Of a stretch of DNA of 64,000 nt, positions 6,331 to 64,000 are shown in pieces; position 1 is the stretch's first letter; the number at the start of each line of letters is the position of its first letter. The stretch is from the IMG/VR virus record IMGVR_UViG_3300032317_000216, positions 32,001 to 96,000 of that record; one strand, given 5' to 3'. The stretch is from a virus (taxonomy: Duplodnaviria > Caudoviricetes). The notes below the pieces were generated by a model, which made no database searches, was not told the DNA's origin, and was given only the letters and a program-made list of their open reading frames with translations. The translations under genes and the position numbers were made by a program.

Positions 6331-6358
6331 ATTTTACTAAAAAAAGTTGCTAAATCAA
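6331..6358 (-). promoter_or_regulatory. promoter TTGATT-N16-TAAAAT, 5 nt before the GTG of the DHH-bS21 operon
   Basis: Read directly from the sequence. Confidence 0.65.
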
Positions 6359-7680: not shown

Positions 7681-7687
7681 ACCTCTA

Positions 7688-9048: not shown

Positions 9049-9055
9049 TTGTAAT

Positions 9056-9084
9056 ATTATAGTATAGAATAATAAATAATTCAA
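9056..9084 (-). promoter_or_regulatory. promoter TTGAAT-N17-TATAAT, 7 nt before the amidotransferase ATG; overlaps a divergent late TAAATA box (9073-9078, +)
   Basis: Read directly from the sequence. Confidence 0.7.
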
Positions 9085-9086
9085 GG

Positions 9087-34280: not shown

Positions 34281-35018
34281 ATGGAAAAGAGTATATTTCT
34301 ATCAGACGACAAGGTTTTTCACACTATTGAAGGTGAAGGAGAACACATTGGTAAGCCTTCACTGTTTATGCGTGTTGCAATGTGTAATCTCACATGCAAG
34401 GGGTTTGCTAGCAAAGATTCTCCACATGGGTGTGATAGTTTTGTCAGCTGGTCAGTGAAAAACAGGTTTACCTTTGACCAGTTATTTCAATACCTAGAAG
34501 ATCATAATTATATTACTCTGCTGCGCAGAGGTGATATATTTAAGATCACCGGCGGTGAGCCGCTCATACAGCAAAAAAATCTTCTGGAATTTATTGCAGC
34601 TTTTGCACTCAAGTACCGCTTCATACCAAGAATAGACTTTGAGACTAATGCAACCATTATACCCGACCCATCTTGGCAGCTTGACTACTTAGCTACATTC
34701 ACAACATCACCCAAGCTTGCAAGTAATGGTGACCCTGAGAACAAGCGATACATACCTGATGCATTAATGTGGCATGCACGCAATGGCTCAGGGTTTAAGT
34801 TCGTCATTACAAAAGAAGAAGACCTTAAGGAGATTGAAGAGCGTTACAGAGAGAAGTTTGATTTCAGGAGAAATAAAGTGTGGTTAATGCCTTGTTGTGG
34901 AAGCAGAGAGGAACATATTGTTATTGCTCCTCTTGTGGCTGAATTATGCAAGAAACATGGCTTTAACTTCAGTCCAAGATTGCAGCTTGTTATCTGGGAT
35001 AAAGCCTTGAAGGTTTAG
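34281..35018 (+). CDS. queE: 7-carboxy-7-deazaguanine synthase (radical SAM)
   Basis: TIEGEG..IG.PS.F.R, CNLTC-x11-CD, ITGGEPL, ETN, SPKL, KFV, PRLQ..IW. Confidence 0.92.
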   Translation: MEKSIFLSDDKVFHTIEGEGEHIGKPSLFMRVAMCNLTCKGFASKDSPHGCDSFVSWSVKNRFTFDQLFQYLEDHNYITLLRRGDIFKITGGEPLIQQKNLLEFIAAFALKYRFIPRIDFETNATIIPDPSWQLDYLATFTTSPKLASNGDPENKRYIPDALMWHARNGSGFKFVITKEEDLKEIEERYREKFDFRRNKVWLMPCCGSREEHIVIAPLVAELCKKHGFNFSPRLQLVIWDKALKV

Positions 35019-35039: not shown

Positions 35040-35774
35040 ATGAGAATTGCCATAGTAGGATCTGCTTGTCAGGGTAAGACAACTCTTGCAAATGATTTTA
35101 TCAAAAACTGGCCTGCTTACAAACGGTCCAAAGAAAGCTATAGACAATTAATTAAAAAAGACAAAATTAAGATTAACAAAAATGTAGATAGTGATGGTCA
35201 GTGGAAAATTCTTAATAGCTTGATTGATGATCTTCAGAACACAGAAAAAACTGATAAGCTTATTTTCGATAGATGCCCACTTGACAATTTAATATACTCC
35301 ATGTGGAGTTTTGATAAACAGAAATCTGATATAGATAAGGAATTCATCGACAAATGCATACCTCTTGTGTGTGAGAGTATGCGTCATTTGGATATTATAT
35401 TTTTTATTCCTATTACTAAGGTGGCTACCGTAAAGATAGAAGAAAGAGAATTAAGAGAAGTGGACAAATCATTCATTGAGGAGATTGATAACATATTCAA
35501 AGCAGTGCAGCGTTCCTATTATACAGGAAAATCACCCTTCTTTCCCAAGGATGATTCTCCTGCAATAATTGAAGTGTTTGGTTCACCAGAAGAGAGAATT
35601 AAAATGATAGAGCTGTATCTTAATAAAGATGGAGAACTACATGGCGAAGAAGAGAGTGTATTAAATCCTGAGAATCTGGATTACATGGAAACATTGCTTA
35701 AAGCACAGAAGCAAGCAAAAGAACAAGAAGAAGAAGAAGTAAGATTGAGAAAAAAATACCTTTTTAATAAATAA
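35040..35774 (+). CDS. P-loop nucleotide kinase-like protein (AAA_28/NadR-type)
   Basis: GSACQGKTT, FDRCPLD, then the IFFIP...R lid region. Confidence 0.7.
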   Translation: MRIAIVGSACQGKTTLANDFIKNWPAYKRSKESYRQLIKKDKIKINKNVDSDGQWKILNSLIDDLQNTEKTDKLIFDRCPLDNLIYSMWSFDKQKSDIDKEFIDKCIPLVCESMRHLDIIFFIPITKVATVKIEERELREVDKSFIEEIDNIFKAVQRSYYTGKSPFFPKDDSPAIIEVFGSPEERIKMIELYLNKDGELHGEEESVLNPENLDYMETLLKAQKQAKEQEEEEVRLRKKYLFNK

Positions 35775-37351: not shown

Positions 37352-38206
37352 ATGCCTAAAATAGGAGTTGGTATAGTTACATGTGATAGGTTTAACTATC
37401 TCGAGAAATGTCTTTTATCTCTTCCAGACTTCGACGGGCCCATAGTTATTGTTAATGATGGTAAACAGAATATAGAGGCAGAAATTAAAAAACTACACTC
37501 TAGAGAAAAAATTCACTTAATACAGCATGCTGTAAATAAAGGTGTAGGTATAAGCAAAAATGATGCTCTTACATATCTCTTGAGTCAAGATGTTGAACAT
37601 CTCTTTCTCCTTGAAGACGATATAATTATTCTCGACAAAACAATTTTTCAGAAGTATATTGATGCATCAGTAGTATCAGGTATAAAGCATTTTAACTACG
37701 GTCCTGGTAGCCCTTTTAATAGAAAGCAAGATCCTAGCACATTTTACGATCTGCATAATAGGCATCTTTGCAATCAACACTCTGAACCTAATCCAAAAAA
37801 AATCATTGACTATGGTAATGATATCAAGATATCTCTCTTTGAACACACAGTGGCAATGTTCTCATATTTTCATCGCAAGGTATTAGAGGATGTTGGTCTC
37901 CATGATGAACAGTTTTACAATGCATGGGAACACGTTGATCTTACATATAGAATTATTAAAGCAGGGTATCATCCACCGTTTTGGTGGTTTGCAGATATAT
38001 TTGATTCTCATAAATTTCTTACAGAAGCACCTGATGCTATCAATAATAGTAGCATTGCAGATAAAAAAGAACAATGGAGTAAAAATGTTTATGGTGGTAG
38101 AGAAAAATATAAAGTAAAGCATGGTCATTACCCCAATCAACCCCCCTTCACCTCAGAACAACAAGTCATTGATACACTTAAAAAACTTAAGAAACAATCA
38201 AAATGA
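37352..38206 (+). CDS. GT2 glycosyltransferase
   Basis: IVTCDR, IVNDG, NKGVGISKN, LLEDD, VGLHDE, EHVDL. Confidence 0.88.
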   Translation: MPKIGVGIVTCDRFNYLEKCLLSLPDFDGPIVIVNDGKQNIEAEIKKLHSREKIHLIQHAVNKGVGISKNDALTYLLSQDVEHLFLLEDDIIILDKTIFQKYIDASVVSGIKHFNYGPGSPFNRKQDPSTFYDLHNRHLCNQHSEPNPKKIIDYGNDIKISLFEHTVAMFSYFHRKVLEDVGLHDEQFYNAWEHVDLTYRIIKAGYHPPFWWFADIFDSHKFLTEAPDAINNSSIADKKEQWSKNVYGGREKYKVKHGHYPNQPPFTSEQQVIDTLKKLKKQSK

Positions 38207-38802
38207 ACACAATTTCAGTTTTTCTCACAACTATCGGCAAGCCAACACTAGCCAACATGCTCAAGAGTTTAATTAATGAACTTGAAGCTAACGACTTTCT
38301 TTATATAGCTATAGATGGTAAAGAATACTACGATCAAGCCAATAAGCAAATTACCCAGTACATTAATGACTTTAAGTGTAATATAACAGTTTTTTATATA
38401 GAAAAAAATCTTGGTTATTGGGGCCATGGTTGCAGAAATTTCTACCAAAAAAATCTTAAGGGAGATTTTATTCTGCATGGTGATGATGATGATGTATATA
38501 TAAGAGGTTCTTTTAAAAAGATAAGAGAGGCTATAGATGTTTCTGATAAACAATCAATTATATTTTTCAGAATTATTGGTGATTATAGACATGATGACTT
38601 TGTATGGAAAGACCCTTCTCTTAGACACGGAAACATCGGTACACCCTGTGGTTTAATTCCTAATATTCCCGACAAGATGGGCAATTGGGAATGCAGATAT
38701 GGTGGTGATTTTTCTTTTTATACATCTTGCAAATTCAATCATATATTCTGTGAAGAAAAAATATATGTCGTTAATCCATTAGGGACAAACTATCCACTAT
38801 GA
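38203..38802 (+). CDS. GT2-like glycosyltransferase
   Basis: IAIDG, WGHGCRN, GDFILHGDDDD, YGGD. Confidence 0.8.
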   Translation: MNTISVFLTTIGKPTLANMLKSLINELEANDFLYIAIDGKEYYDQANKQITQYINDFKCNITVFYIEKNLGYWGHGCRNFYQKNLKGDFILHGDDDDVYIRGSFKKIREAIDVSDKQSIIFFRIIGDYRHDDFVWKDPSLRHGNIGTPCGLIPNIPDKMGNWECRYGGDFSFYTSCKFNHIFCEEKIYVVNPLGTNYPL

Positions 38803-39434
38803 CTGTAATAATTTTATCAAATACAAAAAATCCTTCATACTACTACATGCTTAAAGAATGTATTGATTCTATTCGTCTTTCAAAATGTATTAAAAAGATA
38901 ATTGTAGTGGAAACAAATTGTAAATTGAAGAACAAGCATATTGATTTGAATGCTGAATTTTTATTTCCTTGTATTGACTTTAATTATAACAAGTTTTTAA
39001 ATGTCGCGTTTGAACATATTGATAATAAAGAGGACAAACTAGCTATCTCCAATAATGACGTTATTTATGAACCTGGATGTTTTGATGAACTTGATAGAGC
39101 ACTTTTAACCTATGATTCTGTTAGCCCCACAACAAGACAGATTATAGCAAAGGACAAGTTTACAGAAGGATATGATATAGAGAAAATAGTCATGGGCTGG
39201 TGCATAGCTATGAATAGATTTGTTCAAAAGAAAATTGGCTTATTTGATGAAAAATTTTCTTTTTGGTATCAGGATAATGACTATGCCAATACTTTAAAAA
39301 AATTAAACCTTAAACATGCAAGAGTTAACAGTGCTTACGCTCTTCATAAATACCAACAGAGCCATAAACTTTTAGAAAATAGTTACGCATATACGCATGG
39401 ATTGTCTGAGTTGTTTAATGAAAAATGGGGGTAA
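38799..39434 (+). CDS. GT2-like glycosyltransferase
   Basis: IVVET, FNYNKFLN, SNNDV, GLFDE.F.FWYQDND. Confidence 0.82.
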   Translation: MTVIILSNTKNPSYYYMLKECIDSIRLSKCIKKIIVVETNCKLKNKHIDLNAEFLFPCIDFNYNKFLNVAFEHIDNKEDKLAISNNDVIYEPGCFDELDRALLTYDSVSPTTRQIIAKDKFTEGYDIEKIVMGWCIAMNRFVQKKIGLFDEKFSFWYQDNDYANTLKKLNLKHARVNSAYALHKYQQSHKLLENSYAYTHGLSELFNEKWG

Positions 39435-40030
39435 ATAATTTTATGATAGATAATAATAGAGAAGTGCAAGAATGTAATATTAATAAATGGAATGGTTATT
39501 ATGTGAATTTACCTGATGGTCCATCTGCATTTCTCTACGGTGACACTGTAACATATGAAAAAGCTGCCTCTTTTTTACACGATTGTAAGACAGTTGAAGA
39601 CTGGGGATGTGGCGGTGGCGGGTTTTTGAGATTTAGGAAAGACGCTATAGGGGTAGATGGCAGTGATACTAAGTTTGCTATTAAAAAATTTATTGATCTT
39701 AAAACTTATAGTTCAGATTGTGATGGTATACACATGAGACATGTTCTTGAACATAATTATGCGTGGAAAAACATTCTTAAAAATGCATTAAATAGTGCTA
39801 AAGAAAAACTTGTTATAACATTCTTTATACCTGTTAATGATAAAGGGGTGACTGTGGAAATCTCACATAACAAGCCATTAGGCGTAGATGTACCTGACTT
39901 ATCTATATCTGAAGAAGAGTTTCTTAATGTCCTAAGAGAACATAGACCTAAAATATCAAAAGTTGAAACATTAACACTCTCCTCTAACACACAATACGGG
40001 AAAGAACAAATATTCTATATAACAAAATAA
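39425..40030 (+). CDS. class I SAM methyltransferase
   Basis: VEDWGCGGG, IGVDGS, RHVLEH. Confidence 0.78.
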   Translation: MGVNNFMIDNNREVQECNINKWNGYYVNLPDGPSAFLYGDTVTYEKAASFLHDCKTVEDWGCGGGGFLRFRKDAIGVDGSDTKFAIKKFIDLKTYSSDCDGIHMRHVLEHNYAWKNILKNALNSAKEKLVITFFIPVNDKGVTVEISHNKPLGVDVPDLSISEEEFLNVLREHRPKISKVETLTLSSNTQYGKEQIFYITK

Positions 40031-40045
40031 CTATTTGTTTTAATT

Positions 40046-40696
40046 ATGACTCGTACAGAAAAATATAATTTTAAAATACAAAAAAATCAACACAAAGTTG
40101 ATGTGCCGCTAACATGGGAAGATTCAAGTGAAAAAAATACACTTGATCTATTTGAAGCTTGTTGCTTAAACTTAAAAAACCGCAACTATAATCAATACTC
40201 CATGATTGAGCTTGGTTCTAACTGGTGTTACTATTCGCTTCTCTTTAAGCATATTCTCGGAAAAGAAAAAACACTTAACATCATGGTTGAACCCATAGAA
40301 GATAGTCTTCAACTCGGCAGAGATCATTTTGCGCTCAATAATTGTGAAGGTATTTTCTATCAAAAAGGCATTACTGATACAATGGAGTATTACGGCAAAC
40401 AAATAAAATTAGACTCTATATCTCTTGATAAAATTTTAAAGCAAAATACGATAACATGTACTGATATTTTGCATGCAGATATAGATAGTTGCGAGGTTAC
40501 TTTAATAGAAAAAAATATAGAGTTTTTTCAAGAAGGAAAAGCAAAAAATATCTTTATTCTCACTCACGGTGATTATTATGCAAATACATGTAAAGAATAT
40601 TTCAAACAATTCCCATATAATCTTGTTGCAGAATATCCCTACGGTACACAATGTGGTGATGGGCTGTTAGTATATAAGCTGTCAACAAATAATTAA
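40046..40696 (+). CDS. FkbM-like methyltransferase
   Basis: MIELGS, MVEP, ISLD.I, DILHADID..E, ILTH. Confidence 0.72.
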   Translation: MTRTEKYNFKIQKNQHKVDVPLTWEDSSEKNTLDLFEACCLNLKNRNYNQYSMIELGSNWCYYSLLFKHILGKEKTLNIMVEPIEDSLQLGRDHFALNNCEGIFYQKGITDTMEYYGKQIKLDSISLDKILKQNTITCTDILHADIDSCEVTLIEKNIEFFQEGKAKNIFILTHGDYYANTCKEYFKQFPYNLVAEYPYGTQCGDGLLVYKLSTNN

Positions 40697-40697
40697 A

Positions 40698-41432
40698 ATG
40701 AAAATTGCATTAATGTGCCCTACTAGAAATAGACTTAATAAGTTGCTCACACTTATTTCTAGTCTTGTTACTACTATAAAGAGCAAAGATGTTTTTCTTG
40801 TTTTGGGTGTTGATGAAGATGATCCTGCGAAGAATTACTATTCCTACTTGAGTAACAATATTCCATTTATCAAGACAATTGTCTTTAAAAATGAAGGCAA
40901 ATTTCTCGGGTTATCAACTATGTGGAATAGTATGGTTAAGCAAATAGATTCAGATATTTACGCTATGATAGGTGATGATATGATGTTTATGACGCCTGAC
41001 TGGGATGAACAAATTATTAAAGAATTTAAAAATGGACCAAAAGATAAAATTATGATGCTTCATTGCAATGACGGCATGAGAGGACCAGGTAACAAATATG
41101 CCAATGTACCACCTCTTTGTGTTAATTTTTTCATTCATAAAAACTATATAAACACAGCTGGCTACTTTGTTGAGCCTTACATGGAAAATACACATCATGA
41201 TACATGGCCTCAGATTATCTTTGATAAATTACAGAGAACAGTCTACCGACATGATGTCTTGATAAAACACTTACACTATAGTGAAACAACAGGTAAAATG
41301 GATAATATAAGTAATAACCTTGAAACACTAAGAACTAATATTTGGAATAATGATAGTTGGATTCAAAAATATAAAAATGAAATGGATGAAGAATATATAA
41401 AATTAAAAACTTATATTGAAAACTTTAAATGA
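40698..41432 (+). CDS. GT-A fold glycosyltransferase
   Basis: CPTRNR, GVDEDD, MIGDDM, WD, HHDTW, IKHLHY. Confidence 0.8.
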   Translation: MKIALMCPTRNRLNKLLTLISSLVTTIKSKDVFLVLGVDEDDPAKNYYSYLSNNIPFIKTIVFKNEGKFLGLSTMWNSMVKQIDSDIYAMIGDDMMFMTPDWDEQIIKEFKNGPKDKIMMLHCNDGMRGPGNKYANVPPLCVNFFIHKNYINTAGYFVEPYMENTHHDTWPQIIFDKLQRTVYRHDVLIKHLHYSETTGKMDNISNNLETLRTNIWNNDSWIQKYKNEMDEEYIKLKTYIENFK

Positions 41433-42088
41433 AAATTTATACACATTATAGTGACAGTCACAAGAGTGTGTATGATAACTTCAAACACACTTTAAGAAAT
41501 ATATATTCTGTAGAACAAGCAGCAATTAGAGTATTATATCATCCTCAGACAACAAAGAACGGGGCTTTTATGACCCAAGGATGGCTCGATTCAATGGAAT
41601 ATAAGCTTAATTTAATAATAGATGCAATAAATGAAAACAAAGATAGTTGGTTTGTTTTTGCAGATTGTGATATACAATTCTTTAACCCATTCCTAAATGA
41701 TCTTGAGAACAATCTTCAAAATGCAGATATTGCCTGTCAAGAAGACAGAGGAAGCTTATGCGCAGGTTTTTTTGCTTGTCAGGGTAATTTAAAAGCTGCT
41801 AATCTTTTTGAAACAATAAAAAAGAATTTTAGACGCTTAGTAAACGATCAAGTAGCACTCAACGATCTCAAACATCTCGCTACCTGTAAGATGTTAGATA
41901 ATAAAAAATATTATACTATTGGAAATTTTTTTAATAATAATGATGGTACATATAATTGGGACAATAATACCAATATAATACCCCCAAAAGAAATGCTTGT
42001 TCATCATGCCAACTATGTGGTTGGTGTAGAGAATAAGCAAAAACTTCTTAAGATGATTAAGCATAACTATGAAAATTTGGTTCGATAA
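41429..42088 (+). CDS. nucleotide-diphospho-sugar transferase (GT77-like)
   Basis: FADCDIQF, CAGFF, NDQVALN, HHANY..G...K. Confidence 0.78.
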   Translation: MKIYTHYSDSHKSVYDNFKHTLRNIYSVEQAAIRVLYHPQTTKNGAFMTQGWLDSMEYKLNLIIDAINENKDSWFVFADCDIQFFNPFLNDLENNLQNADIACQEDRGSLCAGFFACQGNLKAANLFETIKKNFRRLVNDQVALNDLKHLATCKMLDNKKYYTIGNFFNNNDGTYNWDNNTNIIPPKEMLVHHANYVVGVENKQKLLKMIKHNYENLVR

Positions 42089-42977
42089 AGATAAAACTAA
42101 TTTTAAAAAATTTACTTCAGAGCAATTTTTGCTTCTACCTCTGTTTAGAGATGAAGTAATTAACAAAGATAATGATTTTAAGTATAACAATCAATGGAAA
42201 GAGTCTATTGGCAAGCTTGTAAGCCTTACATCAAAAGAAGATTGCGATGTTTTTTTATTTCCTGAAAAATTAAATGAAAAAATAAATGAATATATAATTG
42301 AATCAAAAAAATATAATAAAAAAATAATAGCTTTTTTTAATGATGATTATGACAAGCCCTCTTGCTTAGATAATAATGTAATTTTATATAGAACATCTCT
42401 TTTTAAATCAAAACAAAAAAACAATGAATATGCAATGCCAGCCTGGAGTCAAGATTTTACTGACGTAATACCGTTTAAACCAAGAGTAAAAAAAGATATA
42501 CCCACAGTTAGTTTTTGTGGTTTTTTTTCAGACCCTATAAGAAGCAAGAGTATTGAGATTTTAAATAAAAATAAAAATATAGAAACTAATTTTATAATTA
42601 GAGAAGCTTTCTGGGGTGGTAATCCCCATAATACTTCTATAAGAAATGAGTATATTAATAACATAATAAATTCAGATCTCGTCCTATGTACAAGAGGTGC
42701 TGGTAATTTTTCTTATAGGCTCTATGAAGCATTATCATGCGGAAGAATTCCTATTTTTATAGATACTGACTGTGCTTTGCCTTGCGAAGATAAAATAAAT
42801 TGGAAAGATCTCTGTATTTTTATTGAGGATATTAACAATCTTAACACACATATTAATAACTTTTGGCAAAACATTACACCAAGCGAGTATACAGACAGAC
42901 AAATACATGCAAGACAAGCATATGAAGAATTCCTGTCTCCTAATGGATTTGCCAAATATGTAAGCTATAATATCTAA
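42069..42977 (+). CDS. exostosin-like (GT47) glycosyltransferase
   Basis: SFCG...R, SDLVLCTRGAGNFSYRLYEALSCGRIPIFI, LP. Confidence 0.82.
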   Translation: MKIWFDKDKTNFKKFTSEQFLLLPLFRDEVINKDNDFKYNNQWKESIGKLVSLTSKEDCDVFLFPEKLNEKINEYIIESKKYNKKIIAFFNDDYDKPSCLDNNVILYRTSLFKSKQKNNEYAMPAWSQDFTDVIPFKPRVKKDIPTVSFCGFFSDPIRSKSIEILNKNKNIETNFIIREAFWGGNPHNTSIRNEYINNIINSDLVLCTRGAGNFSYRLYEALSCGRIPIFIDTDCALPCEDKINWKDLCIFIEDINNLNTHINNFWQNITPSEYTDRQIHARQAYEEFLSPNGFAKYVSYNI

Positions 42978-43847
42978 ATGGTTGTATCGTTTTTTGAAGA
43001 CATTTTTCAGTATGAAAAATTTCCTGTTGAATATGAATGCTTTAATCAATTAAAAGGTTTTAATAACTTAAACTATGTAGCGGTACCATGGACACAGATA
43101 TTAAATGGACATTGGCTGGATTATCCAAATAAACAGCCAGCAGAATATTACTATAGAACATTAAGCAAATATAAAATACAACAAGAGAATAACTTCACTA
43201 TATGTCAACATGATAGCTACATGATGCTTAAGCTTTATTTTAAACACCTCAAAATAACAAAAGTTTTTTCACCACTACATGACTGCAGTAATAACATGCC
43301 AGAAATAACTATTTTGCCTATACCCTTTACAAGTTCTTTTAACTTTAAGCAAGTTAATAAAGATATACACTTCTCTTTTATTGGGACACACACCTCTCAC
43401 CCCATCCGGATAGATATGAAATCTCGGATTTTTGGTCCTAATATTATTTACAGAGATAGCTACCATGTTGATTCAAATGTTATTATTGGTAATAAAAATA
43501 CAAAACTCGCAGAAGAGAGGGAATACCAAGATGTTTTGCAGAGAAGTCGCTTTTCTCTTTGCCCGCGTGGAAGTTCTGTATCTTCGGTTAGATTTTGGGA
43601 AAGTATGCATGCACAAGCTATACCCATCTTAATTTCAGATAACTGGGTGTTACCTGAATGGGATTGGGAGAATACTGTTGTGCATATAAAAGAAAGTGAT
43701 TTTAATAAAATGAAATATAATGATATAGAAGCTCTTCTTAGTAGCATACCTAGTGAAAGAGAAGATAAAATGAGACAGAATTGTTTGGAAGCGCATAAAA
43801 AGTTTAACACAACTAATTTCGGTAACTACGTAAAAGCACATCTATAA
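42978..43847 (+). CDS. exostosin-like (GT47) glycosyltransferase
   Basis: FSFIG..SHPIR, SRFSLCPRG....RFWESM..AIPILISD.W.LP. Confidence 0.85.
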   Translation: MVVSFFEDIFQYEKFPVEYECFNQLKGFNNLNYVAVPWTQILNGHWLDYPNKQPAEYYYRTLSKYKIQQENNFTICQHDSYMMLKLYFKHLKITKVFSPLHDCSNNMPEITILPIPFTSSFNFKQVNKDIHFSFIGTHTSHPIRIDMKSRIFGPNIIYRDSYHVDSNVIIGNKNTKLAEEREYQDVLQRSRFSLCPRGSSVSSVRFWESMHAQAIPILISDNWVLPEWDWENTVVHIKESDFNKMKYNDIEALLSSIPSEREDKMRQNCLEAHKKFNTTNFGNYVKAHL

Positions 43848-43850
43848 AAT

Positions 43851-44741
43851 ATGAATGTTTACTATGAAGATACTTTCTTAAGAGGATCAGATATAACAGA
43901 ATGCTTCAAGAAAGCATATAAATTTGCATCGCCTGAAACTTGCGACTATTTTTTATGTACGTCTATAGATAACGACATTTGTAATGTAAAAGATGCGCTA
44001 AAATCATTTATTCTCAAAGCAAAAACAAATAATAAAAAAGTTATTTTTCTCGGTCAAGGTGATATCGAAGAAGGGTATATACCTGAAACAATAGGCTATA
44101 ACTTCAAAAATAACTTGCTTAAAACTAAAAAATTTAAAAATGAATTCTCTCTTACATCTTTATCAGAAGAAAGAGTACCTGACAAAAAATTTATACCATA
44201 TGTTGGTGAGTGTTCTGTAGGTTTTTGTGGTGCAAGCGACAGATTTGATAGAGAAAAATATTTAATGAATCTTAGAAATTCTCACTTAAAAACAAACTTT
44301 ATTATTAAAAATGGCCCTAAGTGGGGAACCTCCTCTCATGCAGAGTGCGCAAATGAAGAAACTACAAGAAGAATTCAAGAAGAATCAATAGATATTTTTT
44401 ATAAAAATATGACTGAAAATCTGTTTACTCTTTGTGTAAGAGGCTGGGGCAACTACAGCTACCGTTTTTGCCAAACTATTTGCATGGGCAGAATACCTGT
44501 TCTTATAGATACAGACTGCGTTCTTCCTTTTGAAGAAATTTTTAATTATAATGATTATATAGTTAGAGTTGCCCCTGATCAAAATATTGCACAAGCTATA
44601 GATAATTTCTATGCTATTAATAAAGAAAAACTAATTAATATACAAGAACAACTTTACCAATTTGGCAATGAATATCTTACACCCGTAGGTTTTATGCAAA
44701 ATCTTCATAAATTAATAGAGAAATATGAGTGTAGTAATTAA
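43851..44741 (+). CDS. exostosin-like (GT47) glycosyltransferase
   Basis: GFCG, FTLCVRGWGNYSYRF...MGRIPVLIDTDCVLPF; paralogous to 42069..42977. Confidence 0.8.
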   Translation: MNVYYEDTFLRGSDITECFKKAYKFASPETCDYFLCTSIDNDICNVKDALKSFILKAKTNNKKVIFLGQGDIEEGYIPETIGYNFKNNLLKTKKFKNEFSLTSLSEERVPDKKFIPYVGECSVGFCGASDRFDREKYLMNLRNSHLKTNFIIKNGPKWGTSSHAECANEETTRRIQEESIDIFYKNMTENLFTLCVRGWGNYSYRFCQTICMGRIPVLIDTDCVLPFEEIFNYNDYIVRVAPDQNIAQAIDNFYAINKEKLINIQEQLYQFGNEYLTPVGFMQNLHKLIEKYECSN

Positions 44742-45537
44742 AAAAAGCATGGGAAGATTTGGAAACCAATTGTTTCCTTATTTTACTGGCAGAATAATTT
44801 CTGAAAATTTAAAATTTAAACTTTATGGCCCCACTGAGTCTGATAGAGAATTTATGCTTCATGGCTTAGATTTGAATTACAATAAAAAAGAATATGCTCA
44901 ATATGAAGAGCCTGTACAGCTTTTAGGGGACCATAGTAATTCTGATCATTTCTATCACAGCGATATAAACCATTTTAATAAACTCTGCCATCCTAATTTC
45001 AATATTCTTGATATTATAAATGATAACACACCAAGAAAAATAATACTAGATGGATATTTTCAGCGCAAAGGCTTTTTTTTACCTTTTAGAGAAAATATTA
45101 TTGAATGGTTCAATCCAACAATCTATTCAGTAAATGATACAGATACAGCTATTCACATACGTTTAGGAGATCTGCTTTTTCCTAACTTGAGAAAACACTT
45201 ACTTCCACCGGATTACTATGAAGAAGCTATCAAACTTTGCCCAACAGGCAAGCTGACCATATGCACAGACTCTCCTGAAAATATATTCATACAATACCTA
45301 GTAAAAAAATATAACGCTACTGTATTTAAAGACACAGAAAAAAATACAATTTCTTTTCTAGCAGCTCATAATAATTTAATTTTAAGTCAAGGATCATTTA
45401 GCTTTTGGGCAGGATTTATGTGTAATGGTTCTAATATTATTAATGCGCTGCCAAAGACTGGATGGAATAGTAGCGTGGATGATGTTGATGTTGATGTGCT
45501 TTTAACAGGTGAAAAATACAAATATATTAAATTATGA
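44725..45537 (+). CDS. GT11 alpha-1,2-fucosyltransferase-like protein
   Basis: GRFGNQLF, GYFQ, IHIRLGD, YYEEA, SFSFWAG. Confidence 0.85.
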   Translation: MSVVIKKSMGRFGNQLFPYFTGRIISENLKFKLYGPTESDREFMLHGLDLNYNKKEYAQYEEPVQLLGDHSNSDHFYHSDINHFNKLCHPNFNILDIINDNTPRKIILDGYFQRKGFFLPFRENIIEWFNPTIYSVNDTDTAIHIRLGDLLFPNLRKHLLPPDYYEEAIKLCPTGKLTICTDSPENIFIQYLVKKYNATVFKDTEKNTISFLAAHNNLILSQGSFSFWAGFMCNGSNIINALPKTGWNSSVDDVDVDVLLTGEKYKYIKL

Positions 45538-46343
45538 ACAATTTTCTACTTGTACATATTGGTGACTCTTTACCAAATTTTTTAAAAACATGCATTCGAC
45601 AAATTCAATTAACAAACAAAAATGCTGATATTATTCTAGCAACAAATTTAAATGTACAAGCACCTGGTATTAACTGTGTTAATATAAACAAGCTACAGCT
45701 TAAAGACACAGGGAGCTATTTTCAATATAATCCAGATCCACTATGGATTACTTCATTAAAAAGAATTTTTATAATAGACCATATAATGCAAAAATTTAAT
45801 TTGAAGAATACTGTTCACATTGATAATGATGTGCTTGTATACAATAATATTGATGAAATAAAAGACAAATTAATTGAACCACTCTATATTACACCTCATA
45901 AAAAAACAGAGTTTACTTTTGGTTTTTCTTTTGCCAGAGAATCTAATGCTTTCTCTCTTTTATCAGAAAATATTTATAGATTAATCATGCTTGGTGAAAA
46001 CGAAGTTAAAAAGCTTACTGGAGATGAAACACATGAAATGAGATTGCTTGGCTACACAAATAATAGAAATATTACCCCTTTACCAATTCATCCTAAAATA
46101 GGGCAGCCTATTAACAACTTTATTTTTGACCCCTCTTCTTATGGACAATATTTAGATGGTACACCTAGTGGTCATTTGCCTGGGTTTATTGATCCACTGC
46201 AGATAGCGGGTAGTATATTTAAAGATGAAAATCCAGAAATATTGTTTATTAATAAAAAACCAATTCTTAAACACAACAATAATATTTATAATATCTTTAA
46301 TCTGCATATACACAGCAAACAACTTTCAAAATATGAAATTTGA
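45534..46343 (+). CDS. putative GT-A glycosyltransferase
   Basis: HIDNDV, EM..L, IFDPSSYGQYL.G, NLHIHSK. Confidence 0.6.
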   Translation: MNNFLLVHIGDSLPNFLKTCIRQIQLTNKNADIILATNLNVQAPGINCVNINKLQLKDTGSYFQYNPDPLWITSLKRIFIIDHIMQKFNLKNTVHIDNDVLVYNNIDEIKDKLIEPLYITPHKKTEFTFGFSFARESNAFSLLSENIYRLIMLGENEVKKLTGDETHEMRLLGYTNNRNITPLPIHPKIGQPINNFIFDPSSYGQYLDGTPSGHLPGFIDPLQIAGSIFKDENPEILFINKKPILKHNNNIYNIFNLHIHSKQLSKYEI

Positions 46344-47055
46344 TATAGTTATACCCTATCATAGTAAAGATGAATATACAATTAAAAATTGCGTTAATTC
46401 ATGCTCACATATTAAAGAAAAACAAAATATTTTTATTGTATCTAAAAAAGAACTCAATGTTCCTGGTACTATTTGGATTAATGAAAATATATTTCCATTT
46501 AATACAGAAAAAATAATAAAGCTTAATTCCAGCATTCCAGAGCATAGGGCTGGTTGGTACTTGCAGCAATTAATAAAATTATATTCTTTTATTATACCAA
46601 ATATAACGGATAATTTTTTAGTATTAGATTCTGATGTAATTTTTCAAAAAGATATAACTTTTTTTAGAGATAATATACCCTTGTATTCATTTTCAAATGA
46701 ATATACTCATGAATATTTTGAATGTATGAATTTGCTTAATTCTTTCTTTGAAAGAAGTGTTAATGTATCAGGCATATGTCATCACATGATGTTTGAGAAA
46801 GAAATTTTGTTGGAGATTTTTAAGCTTATTGAGAAGCCTAATAAAGAAATTTGGGAATCAATTATAGAAAATATTAAAAACTGGCACCATGGTTTTTCAG
46901 AATATGAATTATATTTTCATTACATAAATAAAAAATACCCTAAAAAATATTCCATTAGAAAGCTATACTATGAAGATGTTGATGATTTTATGACACATAC
47001 GCCAAGTAATAATTTAGATTATATAGCAAATCATGCATGGAGACGTCAAAAATAA
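46333..47055 (+). CDS. putative GT-A glycosyltransferase (DUF6492-like)
   Basis: DIVIP, GWYLQQLIKL, VLDSD, HHM, FSEYELY. Start ATG 46333. Confidence 0.65.
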   Translation: MKFDIVIPYHSKDEYTIKNCVNSCSHIKEKQNIFIVSKKELNVPGTIWINENIFPFNTEKIIKLNSSIPEHRAGWYLQQLIKLYSFIIPNITDNFLVLDSDVIFQKDITFFRDNIPLYSFSNEYTHEYFECMNLLNSFFERSVNVSGICHHMMFEKEILLEIFKLIEKPNKEIWESIIENIKNWHHGFSEYELYFHYINKKYPKKYSIRKLYYEDVDDFMTHTPSNNLDYIANHAWRRQK

Positions 47056-47056
47056 A

Positions 47057-47929
47057 ATGAATTTTATTACTGGAGAAAAACTTCAAGAATTTGCACATGT
47101 AACAGTGGCTCTTAATACTGAAAATAATTACAACTCAGAGTTAGTTCAGACTCAAATAAGAAATACTAAAACACGGTGCTTTGTTTTTAGTCCCTATAAA
47201 ACAGATGTTGTAATACCCTCAGAGCTAAGAACAGCTAAAATTGTTTTTACTTACCCTCATATTCTAGATTATTTTTTTAATTATGTTTTTCCTCAAATAG
47301 ATGGACCTATTACTCTTATCACTCACAATAGCGATGTAGGCGTTGATTCAAGGTATATACCTTTCTTAAATTCAAATAAAATAAATAGATGGTTTTGTCA
47401 GAATAAATCCACCATACACTCAAAACTTTCTTCTCTTCCTATAGGAATTGCAAATAGACAATGGCCTCACGGCAATATACAAAATATTGAAGAAATTATA
47501 AAATTAAATTTACCGAAAAATAATCTCGCTTTAAAAACTTTTGATTTGTCCACAAATACCCAACACAGGCAACAAATAAACATTCAAACAGAGCAAAATG
47601 GGTTTGTAATGTCGCCGCCTATGCCTCATATTGAATATCTCAAACAACTCAAGCAATCTTATTTCTGTTTTTCCCCATTTGGAGGAGGTGCTGATTGTCA
47701 TAGAATATGGGAGTGTCTTTATTTAGGCTGTGTTCCTATTGTACCAAAACATGAATATGTTTTTAGAGACTTTGAAGAACTTCCAATTCTTTTTGTAGAT
47801 AATTTTGCCACCATTACAAAAGATTATTTAAAATTAAGAATACCCGAATTCTTTCCTTTTGACAATTTCAATTTAAACAAATTAGATTTAAATTACTGGA
47901 AAAAAGAGATATGTGGGCATATAATATAA
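47057..47929 (+). CDS. exostosin/GT47-related glycosyltransferase
   Basis: LITHNSD, PIGIAN, FCFSPFGGGADCHRIWECLYLGCVPIV, LPILFV. Confidence 0.72.
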   Translation: MNFITGEKLQEFAHVTVALNTENNYNSELVQTQIRNTKTRCFVFSPYKTDVVIPSELRTAKIVFTYPHILDYFFNYVFPQIDGPITLITHNSDVGVDSRYIPFLNSNKINRWFCQNKSTIHSKLSSLPIGIANRQWPHGNIQNIEEIIKLNLPKNNLALKTFDLSTNTQHRQQINIQTEQNGFVMSPPMPHIEYLKQLKQSYFCFSPFGGGADCHRIWECLYLGCVPIVPKHEYVFRDFEELPILFVDNFATITKDYLKLRIPEFFPFDNFNLNKLDLNYWKKEICGHII

Positions 47930-47932
47930 ATT

Positions 47933-48613
47933 ATGACTGTAGGGTTATTTCAAGGACAACTGAGAGGGTTTAAGCATGCATTTAACTACATCCAAAACAA
48001 CCTCTTACAGCCACTTGAATGTAAAGAGCTAATTTTTTATTTACCAGAAGATGATAAAGATAAAGAAATTGAAAAGTTTATTCCTAGCTCATATAATGCT
48101 CATATAGTGTATGAAAAAGAAATATATCATGATGAAGAAGGGCTTCTAAATACAGATAACTTGACTTACAATGACAAGGGAATTGAATATAATAAATACC
48201 CACTAAGAGGCAGACTTCAGCATTATCTCATTCAGCTTTACAATAAAAAAAGAGTATTTGAGATTTATAAAAATTCTTTCCCTGACTGCAGTAATCATAG
48301 GATATTGTTTATGCGGCCTGATCTTGCTCCGCATATACCTCTTAACCCAAATGAATTAAACTTTAATTGTTTAAATGTACCCAATTGTCCTCAATGGTTT
48401 GGCGTTTACGATAGGATGTGTATTGGTAATTTTAAAAACGTTGAAACGTACTCTCTATTGTACGACAATATAAAAAACAAACCATCGTTTAGCCATAATA
48501 ACCCTGAATCAAGACTTAAGTTCTGGTTAGATTATAACAATATTTGTACTAATATTTTTCAATTAGGTGAAGTATTGCGCGTAAGCATGGATGGTACATG
48601 CAGAGACTCCTAA
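47933..48613 (+). CDS. putative glycosyltransferase-like protein
   Basis: GQLR, MRPDL, DRMCIG, PE..L pattern seen in glycan-cluster proteins. Confidence 0.5.
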   Translation: MTVGLFQGQLRGFKHAFNYIQNNLLQPLECKELIFYLPEDDKDKEIEKFIPSSYNAHIVYEKEIYHDEEGLLNTDNLTYNDKGIEYNKYPLRGRLQHYLIQLYNKKRVFEIYKNSFPDCSNHRILFMRPDLAPHIPLNPNELNFNCLNVPNCPQWFGVYDRMCIGNFKNVETYSLLYDNIKNKPSFSHNNPESRLKFWLDYNNICTNIFQLGEVLRVSMDGTCRDS

Positions 48614-48629
48614 ATTTATAAAAAATATT

Positions 48630-49406
48630 ATGAAAAAGGGGCTTGTAGGTTTTACTAACGAGAAATATATTGCGTTAACAGAAGTTTTTGTTGATTCTGT
48701 TTTAAAATTTTCTTCCTTGCCTGTAACTATAATTACTATGGGATTTGATCACGACTTTAAAAATAGTCGCGTAAATAACAAGCGGGTAGATCTTGAATTA
48801 AATCAAAATTCGTGGGTAGAATCAACCCTCAGTAAGTATATAGCTTGCGCTCAAACACCATATGATGTTACTTTTTATGCAGATATCGACATGGTTATAA
48901 CAAAAAAATTTGACCCATGGTTCAATAGTATTGAGCCCACTGTTGCTTCTCTTGAAAAAATATTTAGCTGCAAACACCCTCATTTTCCTTGCAATGAAAC
49001 TAATCATTCTTTATTACAATTTTTTAAAAAATTTGGTCTCGGTATAACTCCAGATTATATTTTAACTGCAGGGTTTGCTTATAACCACAAATTCATACCT
49101 CGCTTTTTAGACGCTCATAAGAGAGCAATTAGTCTCCTTAAAGACGGTGTTGAATTTCCAACAGGTGAGGAATGCTTTTTGAACGCATTTCTAATGCAAA
49201 ACAACCTCATACAAGACAGCGGGTATGATTATCTGCCAAACGCTGAGCTTTTTGAGTCATACATCAACAAATCCTTAGATGCTAAAAAGTACATACACCC
49301 TATATACCTGGAACAAGGCAGATACATAAATCCCGTTCTTTTTCATGGAAATAAAGATATTAACCGAGCTCGGTATATGATAGAAGAAATTGAAAAACAC
49401 ACTTGA
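48630..49406 (+). CDS. putative GT-A (GT8-like) glycosyltransferase
   Basis: YADIDM (DxD), GEE..LN, LFHGNK. Start ATG 48630. Confidence 0.6.
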   Translation: MKKGLVGFTNEKYIALTEVFVDSVLKFSSLPVTIITMGFDHDFKNSRVNNKRVDLELNQNSWVESTLSKYIACAQTPYDVTFYADIDMVITKKFDPWFNSIEPTVASLEKIFSCKHPHFPCNETNHSLLQFFKKFGLGITPDYILTAGFAYNHKFIPRFLDAHKRAISLLKDGVEFPTGEECFLNAFLMQNNLIQDSGYDYLPNAELFESYINKSLDAKKYIHPIYLEQGRYINPVLFHGNKDINRARYMIEEIEKHT

Positions 49407-57315: not shown

Positions 57316-57774
57316 ATGTTACCTCTTAAAAGAGATGAAAAGTATCGCCAAGGTATTTTCACACCTGTAAATAAATCTAAATACATTGGCAAAGATTTAC
57401 CTGTGTTTCGATCTGGTTGGGAATTAAAGTTTTTTAGATGGTGCGATAACAATCCAAATGTGCTTGAATGGGCAAGCGAATCAGTTATTATACCCTACGT
57501 GAGCAAGGCGGATGGTAAGGTGCACAGATACTATACAGATGGTATTGTTGCAATAAGAGAGGGAAATAATGTAGCAAAGTATATTATTGAAATAAAACCA
57601 TCATCGCAACTCAGTGTTCCCACTAGTGGTAACAAGAGAAAAAGCACAATAAACTATGAAAATTATAGGTATTTACAGAATATCTCCAAGTGGGAAGCGG
57701 CAAAAAAATGGTGTGATAAGAGAAACATGAAATTCTTAATATTAACAGAAAAAGAGCTAGGTCTTAGAAAATAA
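57316..57774 (+). CDS. head completion nuclease (T4 gp4, TnsA-like)
   Basis: QG.F.P.N..KYIG, RSGWE..F..WCD.NP.V..W.SE..IPY, HRYY.D, IEIKP, KW.AA, F.ILTE. Confidence 0.92.
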   Translation: MLPLKRDEKYRQGIFTPVNKSKYIGKDLPVFRSGWELKFFRWCDNNPNVLEWASESVIIPYVSKADGKVHRYYTDGIVAIREGNNVAKYIIEIKPSSQLSVPTSGNKRKSTINYENYRYLQNISKWEAAKKWCDKRNMKFLILTEKELGLRK

Positions 57775-61602: not shown

Positions 61603-62523
61603 TTACTGTCTAACAGTCTTAGTAAAGTATTTCCACTTGTCCCACATGGCACCATTCTGCTTCAAGAGCTCCTGACTGCTGGCCCTAATGGGATTGATAT
61701 CAATACCACCACGTCTCACATACAAGCAAGACACCATTAATTCCTCTGGCTTAACCAAATCATACAAGCGCTTGTAAATGGTCTCACAAATCTCTTCATG
61801 AAAATGACATTCATCTCTGAATGAGACAATGTATTGCAACAAAGAAGTCTGATTGAGTTGATAAGGACCTTTGTAATGAATATAAACATCCCCCCAGTCC
61901 GGTTGAGATGTGACCCTGCAATTACTCTTTAATAACGCTGAATGAAAGCGCTGCACTTTACTAGAATCACCATCAGTCCAGCCAATCAAAGAAGGATCTT
62001 CTTTATACCCTCTTACTTTGATGGAGGTGACATCAATGCTGTTTTCTAATGTGGGGTAGTTAGCAGTAGAGAATAAAGGTGGATAATAAATTGCATCATC
62101 AATAGCTTTTGTGAGCCTGACGCAAACTTTAACTTCTGTTTCTAGTAATTTGGATAAATCTGCTTCCATTACAGCTTCCAATTGTTGTAATACATTAATA
62201 ATATTGCCTTGATATGTCTCCATATTGAACGAATTCATGTAGAGCTTAATAGACTTTGATTCTACAATATATTTGTTAGTAGCAGGGTAAACTACTTTAG
62301 CAATAGCGGCAATGGGCATGCCTTCATTAGTCAAGCAAGATACTTCATAAGCATTCCAAATATCATAGCCACAGAAAGGGGGACTATCATCAGAAATATC
62401 TAAATGCTTTCTGTTATTCTGTCTTGGCTCGCGAACTAAGAGTGAGGGATCATAGGTACACTTGTACCCAGTTATTTTACCCAGATGTTTTGATATGTTA
62501 CTGTTATCTAATTCCGTATTCAT
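61603..62523 (-). CDS. queF: NADPH-dependent preQ0 reductase, bimodular type
   Basis: YDPSLL, DIWNAYEVS, VESKSIKLYMNSFN, LLKSNC(catalytic)..TSQPDWG, FHEEICE, RRGGIDINP. Confidence 0.93.
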   Translation of the reverse strand: MNTELDNSNISKHLGKITGYKCTYDPSLLVREPRQNNRKHLDISDDSPPFCGYDIWNAYEVSCLTNEGMPIAAIAKVVYPATNKYIVESKSIKLYMNSFNMETYQGNIINVLQQLEAVMEADLSKLLETEVKVCVRLTKAIDDAIYYPPLFSTANYPTLENSIDVTSIKVRGYKEDPSLIGWTDGDSSKVQRFHSALLKSNCRVTSQPDWGDVYIHYKGPYQLNQTSLLQYIVSFRDECHFHEEICETIYKRLYDLVKPEELMVSCLYVRRGGIDINPIRASSQELLKQNGAMWDKWKYFTKTVRQ

Positions 62524-63091
62524 TAAGTTTTATTTTAATTGCATGCATGCGTTCTTCCACTGTTCCTTTTAAAATAGTTACCTTGCCCTTCAACCTCTCA
62601 TCCTTAAGCCAACAATTTTCATACGAATCAATAATTGCATCTCTAAATTCTTTATTTGTACTTCTCTCACCATCATCCACAAGCGACACATCATGCGGAC
62701 TTGGATAAAAAATATGATCATATTTCTTAATATAATTTGTATAATACATTAGACCTAAGCTATTGGACACAGGAAAATCTTTTAACCTATTATAGGCAAA
62801 ATAACTTGTGAACACCATGCCATCCATTATGCAACGATCATGCAATATGCCTTGAAATCCAAATCCTTTGTAATTATAAAACAAATTCTCAAATTCTTTG
62901 TTAAGAATCAAAGTCTGAGTCACATCATTTGCACCAGTTTCATTAATGTCTACCCCATACTCGCGTTTAATCAGTCTTGTAACTTCATCAATATAACACA
63001 ATTTCGAACCATAATGCTCTTTACATTTCTTTAACAGAGTAGTCTTACCTGAACATTGCGGACCAGTAAAAGTAAATATCATTTGCCCCAC
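62504..63091 (-). CDS. P-loop nucleotide kinase-like protein (AAA_28 type)
   Basis: TGPQCSGKTT, E.TR, HDRCIMD, YDHIFY, DDGER, GTVEER. Confidence 0.75.
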   Translation of the reverse strand: MGQMIFTFTGPQCSGKTTLLKKCKEHYGSKLCYIDEVTRLIKREYGVDINETGANDVTQTLILNKEFENLFYNYKGFGFQGILHDRCIMDGMVFTSYFAYNRLKDFPVSNSLGLMYYTNYIKKYDHIFYPSPHDVSLVDDGERSTNKEFRDAIIDSYENCWLKDERLKGKVTILKGTVEERMHAIKIKLNEYGIR

Positions 63092-63426
63092 TTACCATTA
63101 TATACTATCTCTGCAATAATGCCATACACTGCTGAATCTCTAAATGCGTCCATAACTGGTTCATTTGCAGAGTTCATAGCTTTTTTCTTCAGCACCAAAT
63201 TAATCAAACGCTGAATTTTATCATTGAGCCGCACTACTATGGCAGATATAGCAGCAAATCTATCTTCTTGCTTTACTAAATCAGAACCAAGAGAAATATT
63301 GCCTGGACCATAATCAAACTGTTTCTTGCAAAACGTTTCATATAGTTCCGTTTGTATTTTTTGAAACTCCTTGCATGTTTCGGGGAAGTTCTTTTCTACA
63401 TATTTTACAACATCATCTTTATTCAT
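63079..63426 (-). CDS. DUF1599 / nucleotide-modification-associated domain 1-like protein
   Basis: F.KKQ.DYG..N, R.NDK.QRL, E...D...D...Y.II all-alpha pattern. Confidence 0.72.
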   Translation of the reverse strand: MNKDDVVKYVEKNFPETCKEFQKIQTELYETFCKKQFDYGPGNISLGSDLVKQEDRFAAISAIVVRLNDKIQRLINLVLKKKAMNSANEPVMDAFRDSAVYGIIAEIVYNGKWGK

Positions 63427-64000
63427 AATCTTACTCCGTAATTCACTTTATTTAAATTCAACGAACCAAGATTGCAACCACCTGCATAACTAATTGCGCT
63501 TTGCAGATCTTGTTTTATTTCTTGAAGTTTTTCTTGATACGTAAAGGTGTCGGTATCCATGAGCTTCATTGTACCTTCAATATTTTTCTTTTCAATTTTA
63601 TTGTGCATACTAGCAGATCCAAAGTATTGCTTGAACCGTCTTCCGCTTGCATCCTTAACAAGAGGTGCAGGGCTATCAGAACATGCAGCAAATATGGACC
63701 CACACATTACCATACTGGCTCCTGCGACAAGTGCTTTGGCGATATCACCATTACTGCGCACACCCCCATCTGCAATAATAGGAATATTTTTATCTTTTGC
63801 ACACTCCATCACACAACTAAACATGGGATAAGTAAACCCTGTTTTGTCTTTTGTGGTGCAAGCATACCCACCACCAATACCAACCTTTATAGCATCAGCT
63901 CCAGCATCATGCAAATATTCTACACCTTGAAACGATGCAACATTACCAGCAATAATTTTAGCAGACGGCAGTACATGTTTAATATGCTTAATCTGTTCTG
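63423..64000 (-). CDS. guaC: GMP reductase (GuaC), 5' part lies beyond the right window edge
   Basis: The frame stays open to 64000 (IIAGNVA...GADAIKVGIG.G.ACTT..KTG, IADGG, YFGSAS...KKNIEG, QDLQSAISYAG). The FGSAS/DLQS.ISYAG pattern is GuaC-type rather than IMPDH. Confidence 0.82.
   Translation of the reverse strand, partial: EQIKHIKHVLPSAKIIAGNVASFQGVEYLHDAGADAIKVGIGGGYACTTKDKTGFTYPMFSCVMECAKDKNIPIIADGGVRSNGDIAKALVAGASMVMCGSIFAACSDSPAPLVKDASGRRFKQYFGSASMHNKIEKKNIEGTMKLMDTDTFTYQEKLQEIKQDLQSAISYAGGCNLGSLNLNKVNYGVRL

Follow-up and report, generated by a model that had tools for sequence, protein, structure and literature searches.

A very probable DpdA3-dependent deazaguanine cassette, with inserted GuaC and DUF1599 genes and a conserved kinase, in an uncultured T4-like phage

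The right-hand end of the DNA analysed here—a stretch of 64,000 nucleotides, referred to below as the window, that comprises positions 32001–96000 of the linear 128,640-bp IMG/VR viral contig IMGVR_UViG_3300032317_000216 (GC 35%)—carries four overlapping, co-oriented genes on the minus strand, transcribed in the order guaC–DUF1599–kinase–queF, just as the first-pass annotation of the window had reported. They make up the distal portion of an operon of six genes, dpdA3–dpdN–guaC–DUF1599–kinase–queF, the first two of which lie past the end of the window. The locus is very probably a DpdA3-dependent deazaguanine cassette: a new form of the known DpdA3/DpdN cassette, into which GuaC and DUF1599 are inserted. 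Three groups of phages have been reported in which all of the guanine is replaced by a 7-deazaguanine (PMC10516641). Here and in many metagenomic relatives, DpdA3 is almost always accompanied by a small protein of the nucleotide-kinase type, and often by purine-salvage or nucleotide-hydrolysing enzymes, and this linkage bears on whether complete replacement occurs before replication or after it. The consistency with which DpdA3 and the kinase are linked is the part of the work most worth following up.

The operon is of the early/middle kind and belongs to a T4-like myovirus (gp23 major capsid protein, prohead protease and scaffold, gp5-like hub, B-family polymerase, UvsX). Adjacent genes in it are tightly packed: guaC and the DUF1599 gene overlap by 4 nt, the DUF1599 and kinase genes by another 4 nt (ATGA), and the kinase gene and queF by 20 nt. 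The genes directly 5′ of guaC, co-oriented with it and joined by overlaps, are those for DpdN and then, approximately 1 kb past the window's end, for DpdA3. A promoter-like sequence, TTGAAT-N16-TATAAT, fills the 35-nt gap between the DpdA3 gene and the divergent hub gene, stopping 6 nt short of the DpdA3 ATG. The kinase gene likely begins, in truth, at the ATG at 63082, which gives a protein of 192 aa. The matches to protein families on which these gene names rely (Table 1) indicate strong homology rather than chance open reading frames. When the region was compared by blastn with a phage collection no match was found. CheckV rates the contig as approximately 61% complete, so the gene inventory is partial, and absences from it are weak evidence.

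The first-pass annotation had proposed an undescribed, DpdA-independent system, and had recommended a look past the right-hand end of the window for genes such as a DpdA. Inspection reveals one: a DpdA3 homolog, accompanied by a DpdN-type formyltransferase, approximately 1 kb beyond the window's end. Because this homolog sits in the same operon, two genes upstream of guaC, the DpdA-independent proposal is refuted. Synthesis of a deaza-dNTP by a phosphoribosyltransferase or kinase path alone is, by the same token, barely credible any longer. What spoke for it was that DpdA is seemingly absent from the window alone, and that the Pfam model for tRNA-guanine transglycosylases (TGT), PF01702, finds nothing in the whole contig. 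That blank is a false negative. DpdA3 is too divergent for the model to detect, and so DpdA seems to be absent when it is present—a tempting misreading, and one that is corrected here.

The 276-aa protein is 47% identical to gp056 of Campylobacter phage CP220, its closest DpdA3; 42% identical (E 6e-69) to the DpdA of Flavobacterium phage immuto_2-6A; and 24% identical to CGPG_00065 of phage phiST. The CP220-group and phiST proteins have been named DpdA3 (PMC10516641), and the family profile recovers all three. An AlphaFold2 (AF2) model of the protein (predicted local distance difference test score, pLDDT, 94.7) returned TGTs as every one of its top 50 Foldseek matches in the PDB (E ∼1e-7, TMq 0.6–0.7), and a TIM-barrel fold of the TGT type is predicted. 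The profile aligns the HLLG…SxD nucleophile motif of the family with that of Salmonella DpdA (7ui4), making D219 the aligned nucleophile. All of 58 sequences compared have D60, D91 and D219, of which D60 and D91 are equated with the other two catalytic aspartates (general acid and base recognition) by motif resemblance only.

Bacterial DpdA shares with DpdA3 the TGT-type TIM barrel and the nucleophile motif, and base exchange in that system needs a second, NTP-using protein, DpdB (PMC10164549). The two differ in other respects. Bacterial DpdA is a protein of 436 aa in which the nucleophile is followed by an insertion of 128 aa (Ins8), where DpdA3 has ∼57 residues. DpdB belongs to the ParB-like ATPases; the P-loop partner here is of the nucleoside monophosphate (NMP) kinase type. 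Bacterial DpdA/DpdB modification affects less than 0.1% of G (PMC10164549). Size does not discriminate, since the DNA-active DpdA1 of phage CAjan is also short, at 306 aa. We considered the kinase as a DpdB-like ATPase partner and gave this less weight: its profile resembles those of kinases that act on small molecules (NMPs and nucleosides), and ParB-like proteins are not among its matches.

DpdN adjoins DpdA3. In two metagenomic proteins, P0248 and P0307, the two occur naturally as a single chain of 447 aa, DpdA3 at the N-terminus and DpdN at the C-terminus, which suggests that they act together. We looked for fusions between DpdA3 and the kinase among long DpdA3 representatives and found none; the long forms were DpdA3–DpdN fusions, or had unrelated extensions. 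DpdA3 has been proposed to be the transglycosylase responsible for complete replacement, and DpdN to be a formyltransferase (Hutinet et al. 2023, PMC10516641). The QueF encoded at the distal end of the operon is bimodular and has the ESKSIKLY motif and the cysteine of the NCRVT(S/N)QPDWG segment, with an NCBIfam TIGR03138 score (262.9 bits) below the equivalog cut-off of 293.

The chemistry that these genes would perform can be laid out in order. FolE, QueD, QueE and QueC, all of which are encoded in the window, would make preQ0 from GTP; QueF would reduce preQ0 to preQ1; DpdN would formylate preQ1; and DpdA3 would exchange guanine for the deazaguanine, at the level of DNA according to the published view. 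We predict that in the DNA of the virion most or all of the G is replaced by a base derived from preQ1, which is probably formyl-preQ1. A free-standing gene resembling class-II glutamine amidotransferases (GATase_6/7; window 8359–9084, minus strand) is situated ∼2 kb from queC. Its product might be a source of ammonia for QueC, or the gene might be an echo of the Gat–QueC fusions of archaeosine phages.

The DNA of immuto_2-6A is reported to contain no detectable deoxyguanosine (dG) and to be fully substituted with fdPreQ1 (Hutinet et al. 2023, PMC10516641). Its genes run DpdA, a small open reading frame, DpdN, a ‘thymidylate kinase’ and QueF. The two phages thus share both the order and the orientation of DpdA3, DpdN, AAA_28 kinase and bimodular QueF, at identities of 42%, 45%, 28% and 46%, respectively, and both have the full FolE–QueD–QueE–QueC set and a small Gpt-like phosphoribosyltransferase (PRTase). 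They differ in that the present phage has GuaC and DUF1599 as insertions separating DpdN from the kinase; that the hydrolase of the PRA-PH type beside the DpdA of immuto_2-6A is not found in the present 128.6-kb contig; that immuto_2-6A has an A-family polymerase whereas the polymerase here is T4-like and of the B-family; and that the Q genes here are dispersed over ∼51 kb.

Phages of the CP220 group (Firehammervirus) afford a second comparison. Their guanine is reported to be completely replaced, giving 2′-deoxy-7-amido-7-deazaguanosine (dADG), and synthesis ends at 7-carboxy- or 7-amido-7-deazaguanine (CDG/ADG) (PMC10516641). In addition to the closest DpdA3, they have the same family of kinase immediately downstream of it, and a second kinase paralog elsewhere. 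They differ in having no QueF or DpdN beside DpdA3 in the stretch of CP220 examined, and a fusion of an HD-phosphohydrolase to a P-loop domain upstream of it, and tblastn detects no GuaC, DUF1599 or Gpt-like PRTase in them.

Which genes of the cassette are core can be gauged from its relatives. Sixty IMG/VR loci with DpdA3 relatives at 47–95% identity were taken and the cassette genes mapped in them; 55 were informative. DpdA3…kinase–QueF was present in all of these but one (54 of 55), DpdN in 45, DUF1599 in 35, and GuaC, within the cassette, in only 17. Minimal relatives exist that consist of DpdA3, kinase and QueF alone, and further contigs give the same picture. By these counts GuaC and DUF1599 are accessory, lineage-specific insertions between DpdN and the kinase, and the kinase, retained alongside DpdA3, is part of the core. 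Related loci share ancestry, and neighbourhood counts of this sort are not counts of independent events. Some relatives of the cassette (L011–L014, with a DUF1599 71% identical to the one here; L011 coordinates 6350–9307) have two genes inserted: one for an FMN reductase, on the opposite strand, and one for a radical SAM/SPASM protein of 438 aa, which separates the kinase from QueF. These insertions could stand for a further, different modification of the deazaguanine.

The kinase itself (kinase 1) exceeds the cut-off for PF13521 comfortably (43.1 bits versus 27) and matches phrog_2107 (E 1.6e-20). The P-loop GxxxxGK(T/S), the motif DRC, and DDGxRS, with the lid arginine, vary little or not at all among 24 sequences of the family. 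The family profile finds thymidylate kinases as its best match, over their full length, and then deoxynucleoside kinase (dNK) and the ribosylnicotinamide kinase (RNK) of NadR, which marks kinase 1, as judged by homology, as a kinase of the small-molecule, NMP or nucleoside type. The second kinase of the same type that had been noticed directly after queE is borne out: its gene starts 22 nt after queE, and the paralog, kinase 2, is 22% identical to kinase 1. Kinase 1 is 33% identical to CP220 gp057. Among 50,697 phage records kinase 1 matches only 17 of the Campylobacter CP220 group and four of immuto, and kinase 2 is related, within the phage database, only to the second of the two kinases of the CP220 group, tblastn being able to detect only fairly close kinase relatives.

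The association of DpdA3 with a kinase extends well beyond these close relatives. In six phage lineages a small protein of the P-loop kinase type adjoins DpdA3 or a DpdA3-like protein, and in three of them—CP220, immuto and phiST—a gene for a nucleotide (pyro)phosphohydrolase is nearby too. In immuto the pyrophosphohydrolase, of the PRA-PH type, adjoins DpdA; in phiST an AAA_18 P-loop gene is beside DpdA3 and a MazG gene is two genes off. A DpdA3-like gene is directly preceded by a gene of the P-loop kinase type in both Chryseobacterium phage MA9V-3 and Bacillus phage BSTP12. Among more distant DpdA3 representatives (33–37% identity), an AAA_28 gene is found within two genes downstream in three of the four informative loci, one of which has a DCD-family gene upstream as well; the fourth has no detectable kinase within 7 kb. 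As a control, the gene cluster of the DpdA1 phage CAjan, in which modification is partial and motif-specific, is without a P-loop gene. The paper in which DpdA3 was defined (PMC10516641) nowhere uses the word ‘kinase’ in its main text, and our search of the literature found no paper that ties a GMP reductase or a kinase to 7-deazaguanine in phage DNA. In the metagenomic contigs L090 and L091, the DpdA3 of which is 36% identical to the one here, the genes run in the order DCD-family gene, DpdA3, a 161-aa protein, an AAA_28 kinase, QueC and, farther on, Vut_1, a queuosine-precursor transporter of the YhhQ type. Here too, and independently, DpdA3 is found in the company of nucleotide enzymes.

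What might a kinase do for a transglycosylase? Complete exchange on DNA would free one guanine for every G replaced, and the Gpt-like PRTase, together with the two kinases, may recycle that guanine to GMP, GDP and GTP, and so back into FolE; GuaC would bleed off surplus GMP to IMP, as would suit an AT-rich genome. Matches to the PRTase occur in 16 phage records, nine of which are those of immuto and the phiST group. We favour this account of the cassette as a whole, salvage roles of the PRTase, kinases and GuaC included, but only by somewhat, and with far less assurance than we have in the DpdA3-dependent cassette as such.

Several considerations weigh against it. Action of DpdA3 on DNA has not been demonstrated in vitro or in a heterologous host, and the authors' attempts to reconstitute it in Escherichia coli failed (PMC10516641). 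A GuaC that drains GMP is hard to square with the recycling of guanine to GTP. In CP220 tblastn finds no Gpt-like PRTase, though both kinases are present there. The partial inventory of the contig should be kept in mind as well. And the linkage of DpdA3 to proteins of the NMP-kinase type and to (pyro)phosphohydrolases looks like the sets of genes that phages use to substitute a base before replication.

Pre-replicative substitution is a familiar strategy. For hydroxymethylcytosine (hmC), T4 uses a dCTPase, a dCMP hydroxymethylase and a dNMP kinase, and the Z-genome phages use MazZ, PurZ and DatZ. The resemblance lies in the combination of a base-changing enzyme with a kinase, joined in sister lineages by a phosphohydrolase, and in complete replacement as the outcome. 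The differences are that the base-changing enzyme here comes from a family known only to act on polynucleotides, and that no dGTPase has been identified in the contig. If DpdA3 nonetheless worked in this fashion, it would swap the base on free dGMP or dG; a phosphohydrolase would supply the dGMP and clear away dGTP; the kinases would raise the product towards the triphosphate; and the B-family polymerase would incorporate it, to 100% substitution, with GuaC depleting guanine nucleotides further.

We hold this to be possible, though distinctly the less probable course. Much of the evidence already described speaks in its favour: the kinase family next to DpdA3 in CP220, immuto and nearly all of the related loci, and beside most of the distant representatives; other P-loop kinase-type genes in phiST, MA9V-3 and BSTP12; a family profile that fits small-molecule kinases; the restriction of the database matches of kinase 1 to DpdA3 phages and of kinase 2 to the CP220 group; HD, PRA-PH and MazG genes near DpdA3 in CP220, immuto and phiST, respectively; and the contrast between CAjan, modified in part and devoid of a P-loop gene in its cluster, and the DpdA3 phages, which replace completely. 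A DCD-family gene beside DpdA3 in a metagenomic relative, the product of which could, as no more than a suggestion, act on dNTPs, adds to this. The free ADG nucleoside reported from CP220-infected cells (PMC10516641) is on the same side. Swapping at the nucleotide level, if true, would account for the replacement of 100% of G in phages with DpdA3, in contrast to those with DpdA1, DpdA2 or DpdA4, and for the failure to reconstitute DpdA3 alone in E. coli.

There are objections to it. To our knowledge, every DpdA and TGT enzyme that has been characterised acts on polynucleotides. The published proposal is a post-replicative one (PMC10516641). One distant DpdA3 locus, as noted, has no kinase detectable nearby, and conserved neighbourhoods among related cassettes are not independent pieces of evidence. 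The only candidate for the phosphohydrolase here is the DUF1599 protein, which has no detectable similarity to MazG or PRA-PH proteins; searches of the 128.6 kb of this ∼61%-complete contig for PurA/PurZ, HD, MazG and PRA-PH found none. A nucleotide-pool step in complete guanine replacement, as had been proposed for the operon, is still plausible, since in several phage lineages DpdA3 has kept the kinase at its side along with other nucleotide enzymes, but it would operate through DpdA3, and not around it.

The DUF1599 label merits a closer look, for the 115-aa protein had also been cast as a pyrophosphatase that removes dGTP. The protein has no direct match in Pfam, but a relative 63% identical to it reaches E 8.6e-5 against PF07659 (23.2 bits versus a cut-off of 25), and the profile of its family aligns by hhalign with a bona fide DUF1599 protein (probability 96.9%, E 2e-10). 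It appears from these comparisons to be a divergent member of the DUF1599/Nmad1 family, with more than 1500 metagenomic homologs at 60–94% identity. Its AF2 model (pLDDT 90.7) is all-helical, in agreement with the all-alpha character first ascribed to it. When the model was used to search Foldseek (pdb) and VIA (wide) only generic helical hairpins were returned, which speak neither for nor against a MazG-like fold, and hhalign of the family against the MazG-like protein of phiST and the PRA-PH-like protein of immuto gave no relationship (probability ∼0.1%). The dGTP-clearing role thus finds no backing in a kinship to MazG or PRA-PH.

GuaC, by comparison, looks from its sequence like a near-canonical GMP reductase. 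It scores 341.6 bits against the NCBIfam GMP reductase model NF003966, a hair beneath the cut-off of 344, and 301.6 against TIGR01306 (cut-off 465.7); it matches GMP reductase 1ypf over residues 6–309 (E 6e-77), and the cysteine loop, GIGxGxxCxTK, is conserved. Simple rebalancing of purines, offered at the outset as a caveat, is the most economical reading of its presence, and one that would have the enzyme act on the purine pool. Homologs are scattered sporadically among unrelated phages: Bacillus phage G, Staphylococcus phage 42E, Caulobacter phage Cr30, jumbo phages of Xanthomonas and Stenotrophomonas, and the crAss-like phage cr108_1. In cr108_1 and in Microcystis phage Mel-JY01, DUF1599 and GuaC-like genes are found amid genes for thymidylate synthase, thioredoxin, ribonucleotide reductase and polymerase, that is, in modules for nucleotide metabolism in general.

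From this breadth of distribution, and from the dispensability of GuaC and DUF1599 in the cassette, it might be argued that these two and the kinases are generic nucleotide-metabolism genes, comparable to the gp1 dNMP kinase of T4, that share an early operon and have no specific link to deazaguanine. We consider this unlikely. The argument is weak for the kinase, whose order and orientation beside DpdA3 have been kept at 28–35% identity in Campylobacter phages, Flavobacterium phages and the present lineage, even where, as in CP220, there is no QueF.

A more exotic role for GuaC comes to mind from antibiotic biosynthesis. In the toyocamycin and tubercidin pathways a homolog of GMP reductase, ToyE/TubD, deaminates a 7-deazaguanine ribonucleotide made by a PRTase. 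GuaC here is embedded in a 7-deazapurine cluster, and the genome encodes a Gpt-like PRTase, so that an analogous reaction would yield a 7-deaza-hypoxanthine or 7-deaza-adenine nucleotide. We rate this as highly improbable: GuaC is missing from most of the related cassettes, it scores essentially at the threshold for canonical GMP reductases, and no PurA/PurZ homolog turned up in the contig. Nor do we know of any base of the 7-deaza-hypoxanthine or 7-deaza-adenine type in phage DNA.

Table 1. Genes of the operon and of the wider deazaguanine and salvage set. Positions are those of the window unless marked ‘genome’, which refers to the 128,640-bp contig.
Gene product	Position	Strand	Evidence
DpdA3, 276 aa	genome 96953–97783, outside window	−	No Pfam match; homology to named DpdA3 proteins, predicted TGT fold
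DpdN-type formyltransferase, 190 aa	genome 96384–96956, outside window	−	PF00551 E 2.1e-16
GuaC-like, C-terminal 191 aa in window	63423–64000; full gene, 319 aa, to window-equivalent 64382 (genome 95423–96382)	−	PF00478 E 6.9e-55
Divergent DUF1599/Nmad1 protein, 115 aa	63079–63426	−	Family-profile match
Kinase 1, AAA_28 P-loop	62504–63091	−	PF13521 E 6.8e-11
Bimodular QueF, 306 aa	61603–62523	−	PF14819 E 7.9e-34 and PF14489 E 2.5e-23
Kinase 2, paralog of kinase 1	35040–35774	+	PF13521 E 1.1e-9, weak dNK match, phrog_2107
QueE-like radical SAM enzyme	34281–35018	+	PF13353 E 7.3e-5; position and size fit phage QueE
QueD (PTPS family)	32648–33298	+	PF01242 E 4.3e-16
FolE (GTP cyclohydrolase I)	30555–31205	−	PF01227 E 2.6e-48
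QueC	11059–11799	−	PF06508 E 2.3e-57
Gpt-like xanthine/guanine phosphoribosyltransferase, 144 aa	genome 112397–112831 (L003:16397–16831), outside window	−	

Other genes of the contig deserve brief mention. Wedged amid the head-morphogenesis genes is one for a 152-aa protein with an N-terminal domain like that of the TnsA endonuclease (window 57316–57774, plus strand; E 8.9e-21), which may be a homing-type or mobile endonuclease. A gene for a UDP-galactopyranose mutase is located at window 10081–11067 (plus strand). Beyond the window, at genome 108839–109471 (minus strand), is a gene of the 2OG-Fe(II) oxygenase family (PF13759, E 6.4e-23). A long series of glycosyltransferase- and methyltransferase-like genes occupies window positions 37352–49406 (plus strand), and a similar series directly follows the GuaB-like gene in Microcystis phage Mel-JY01.

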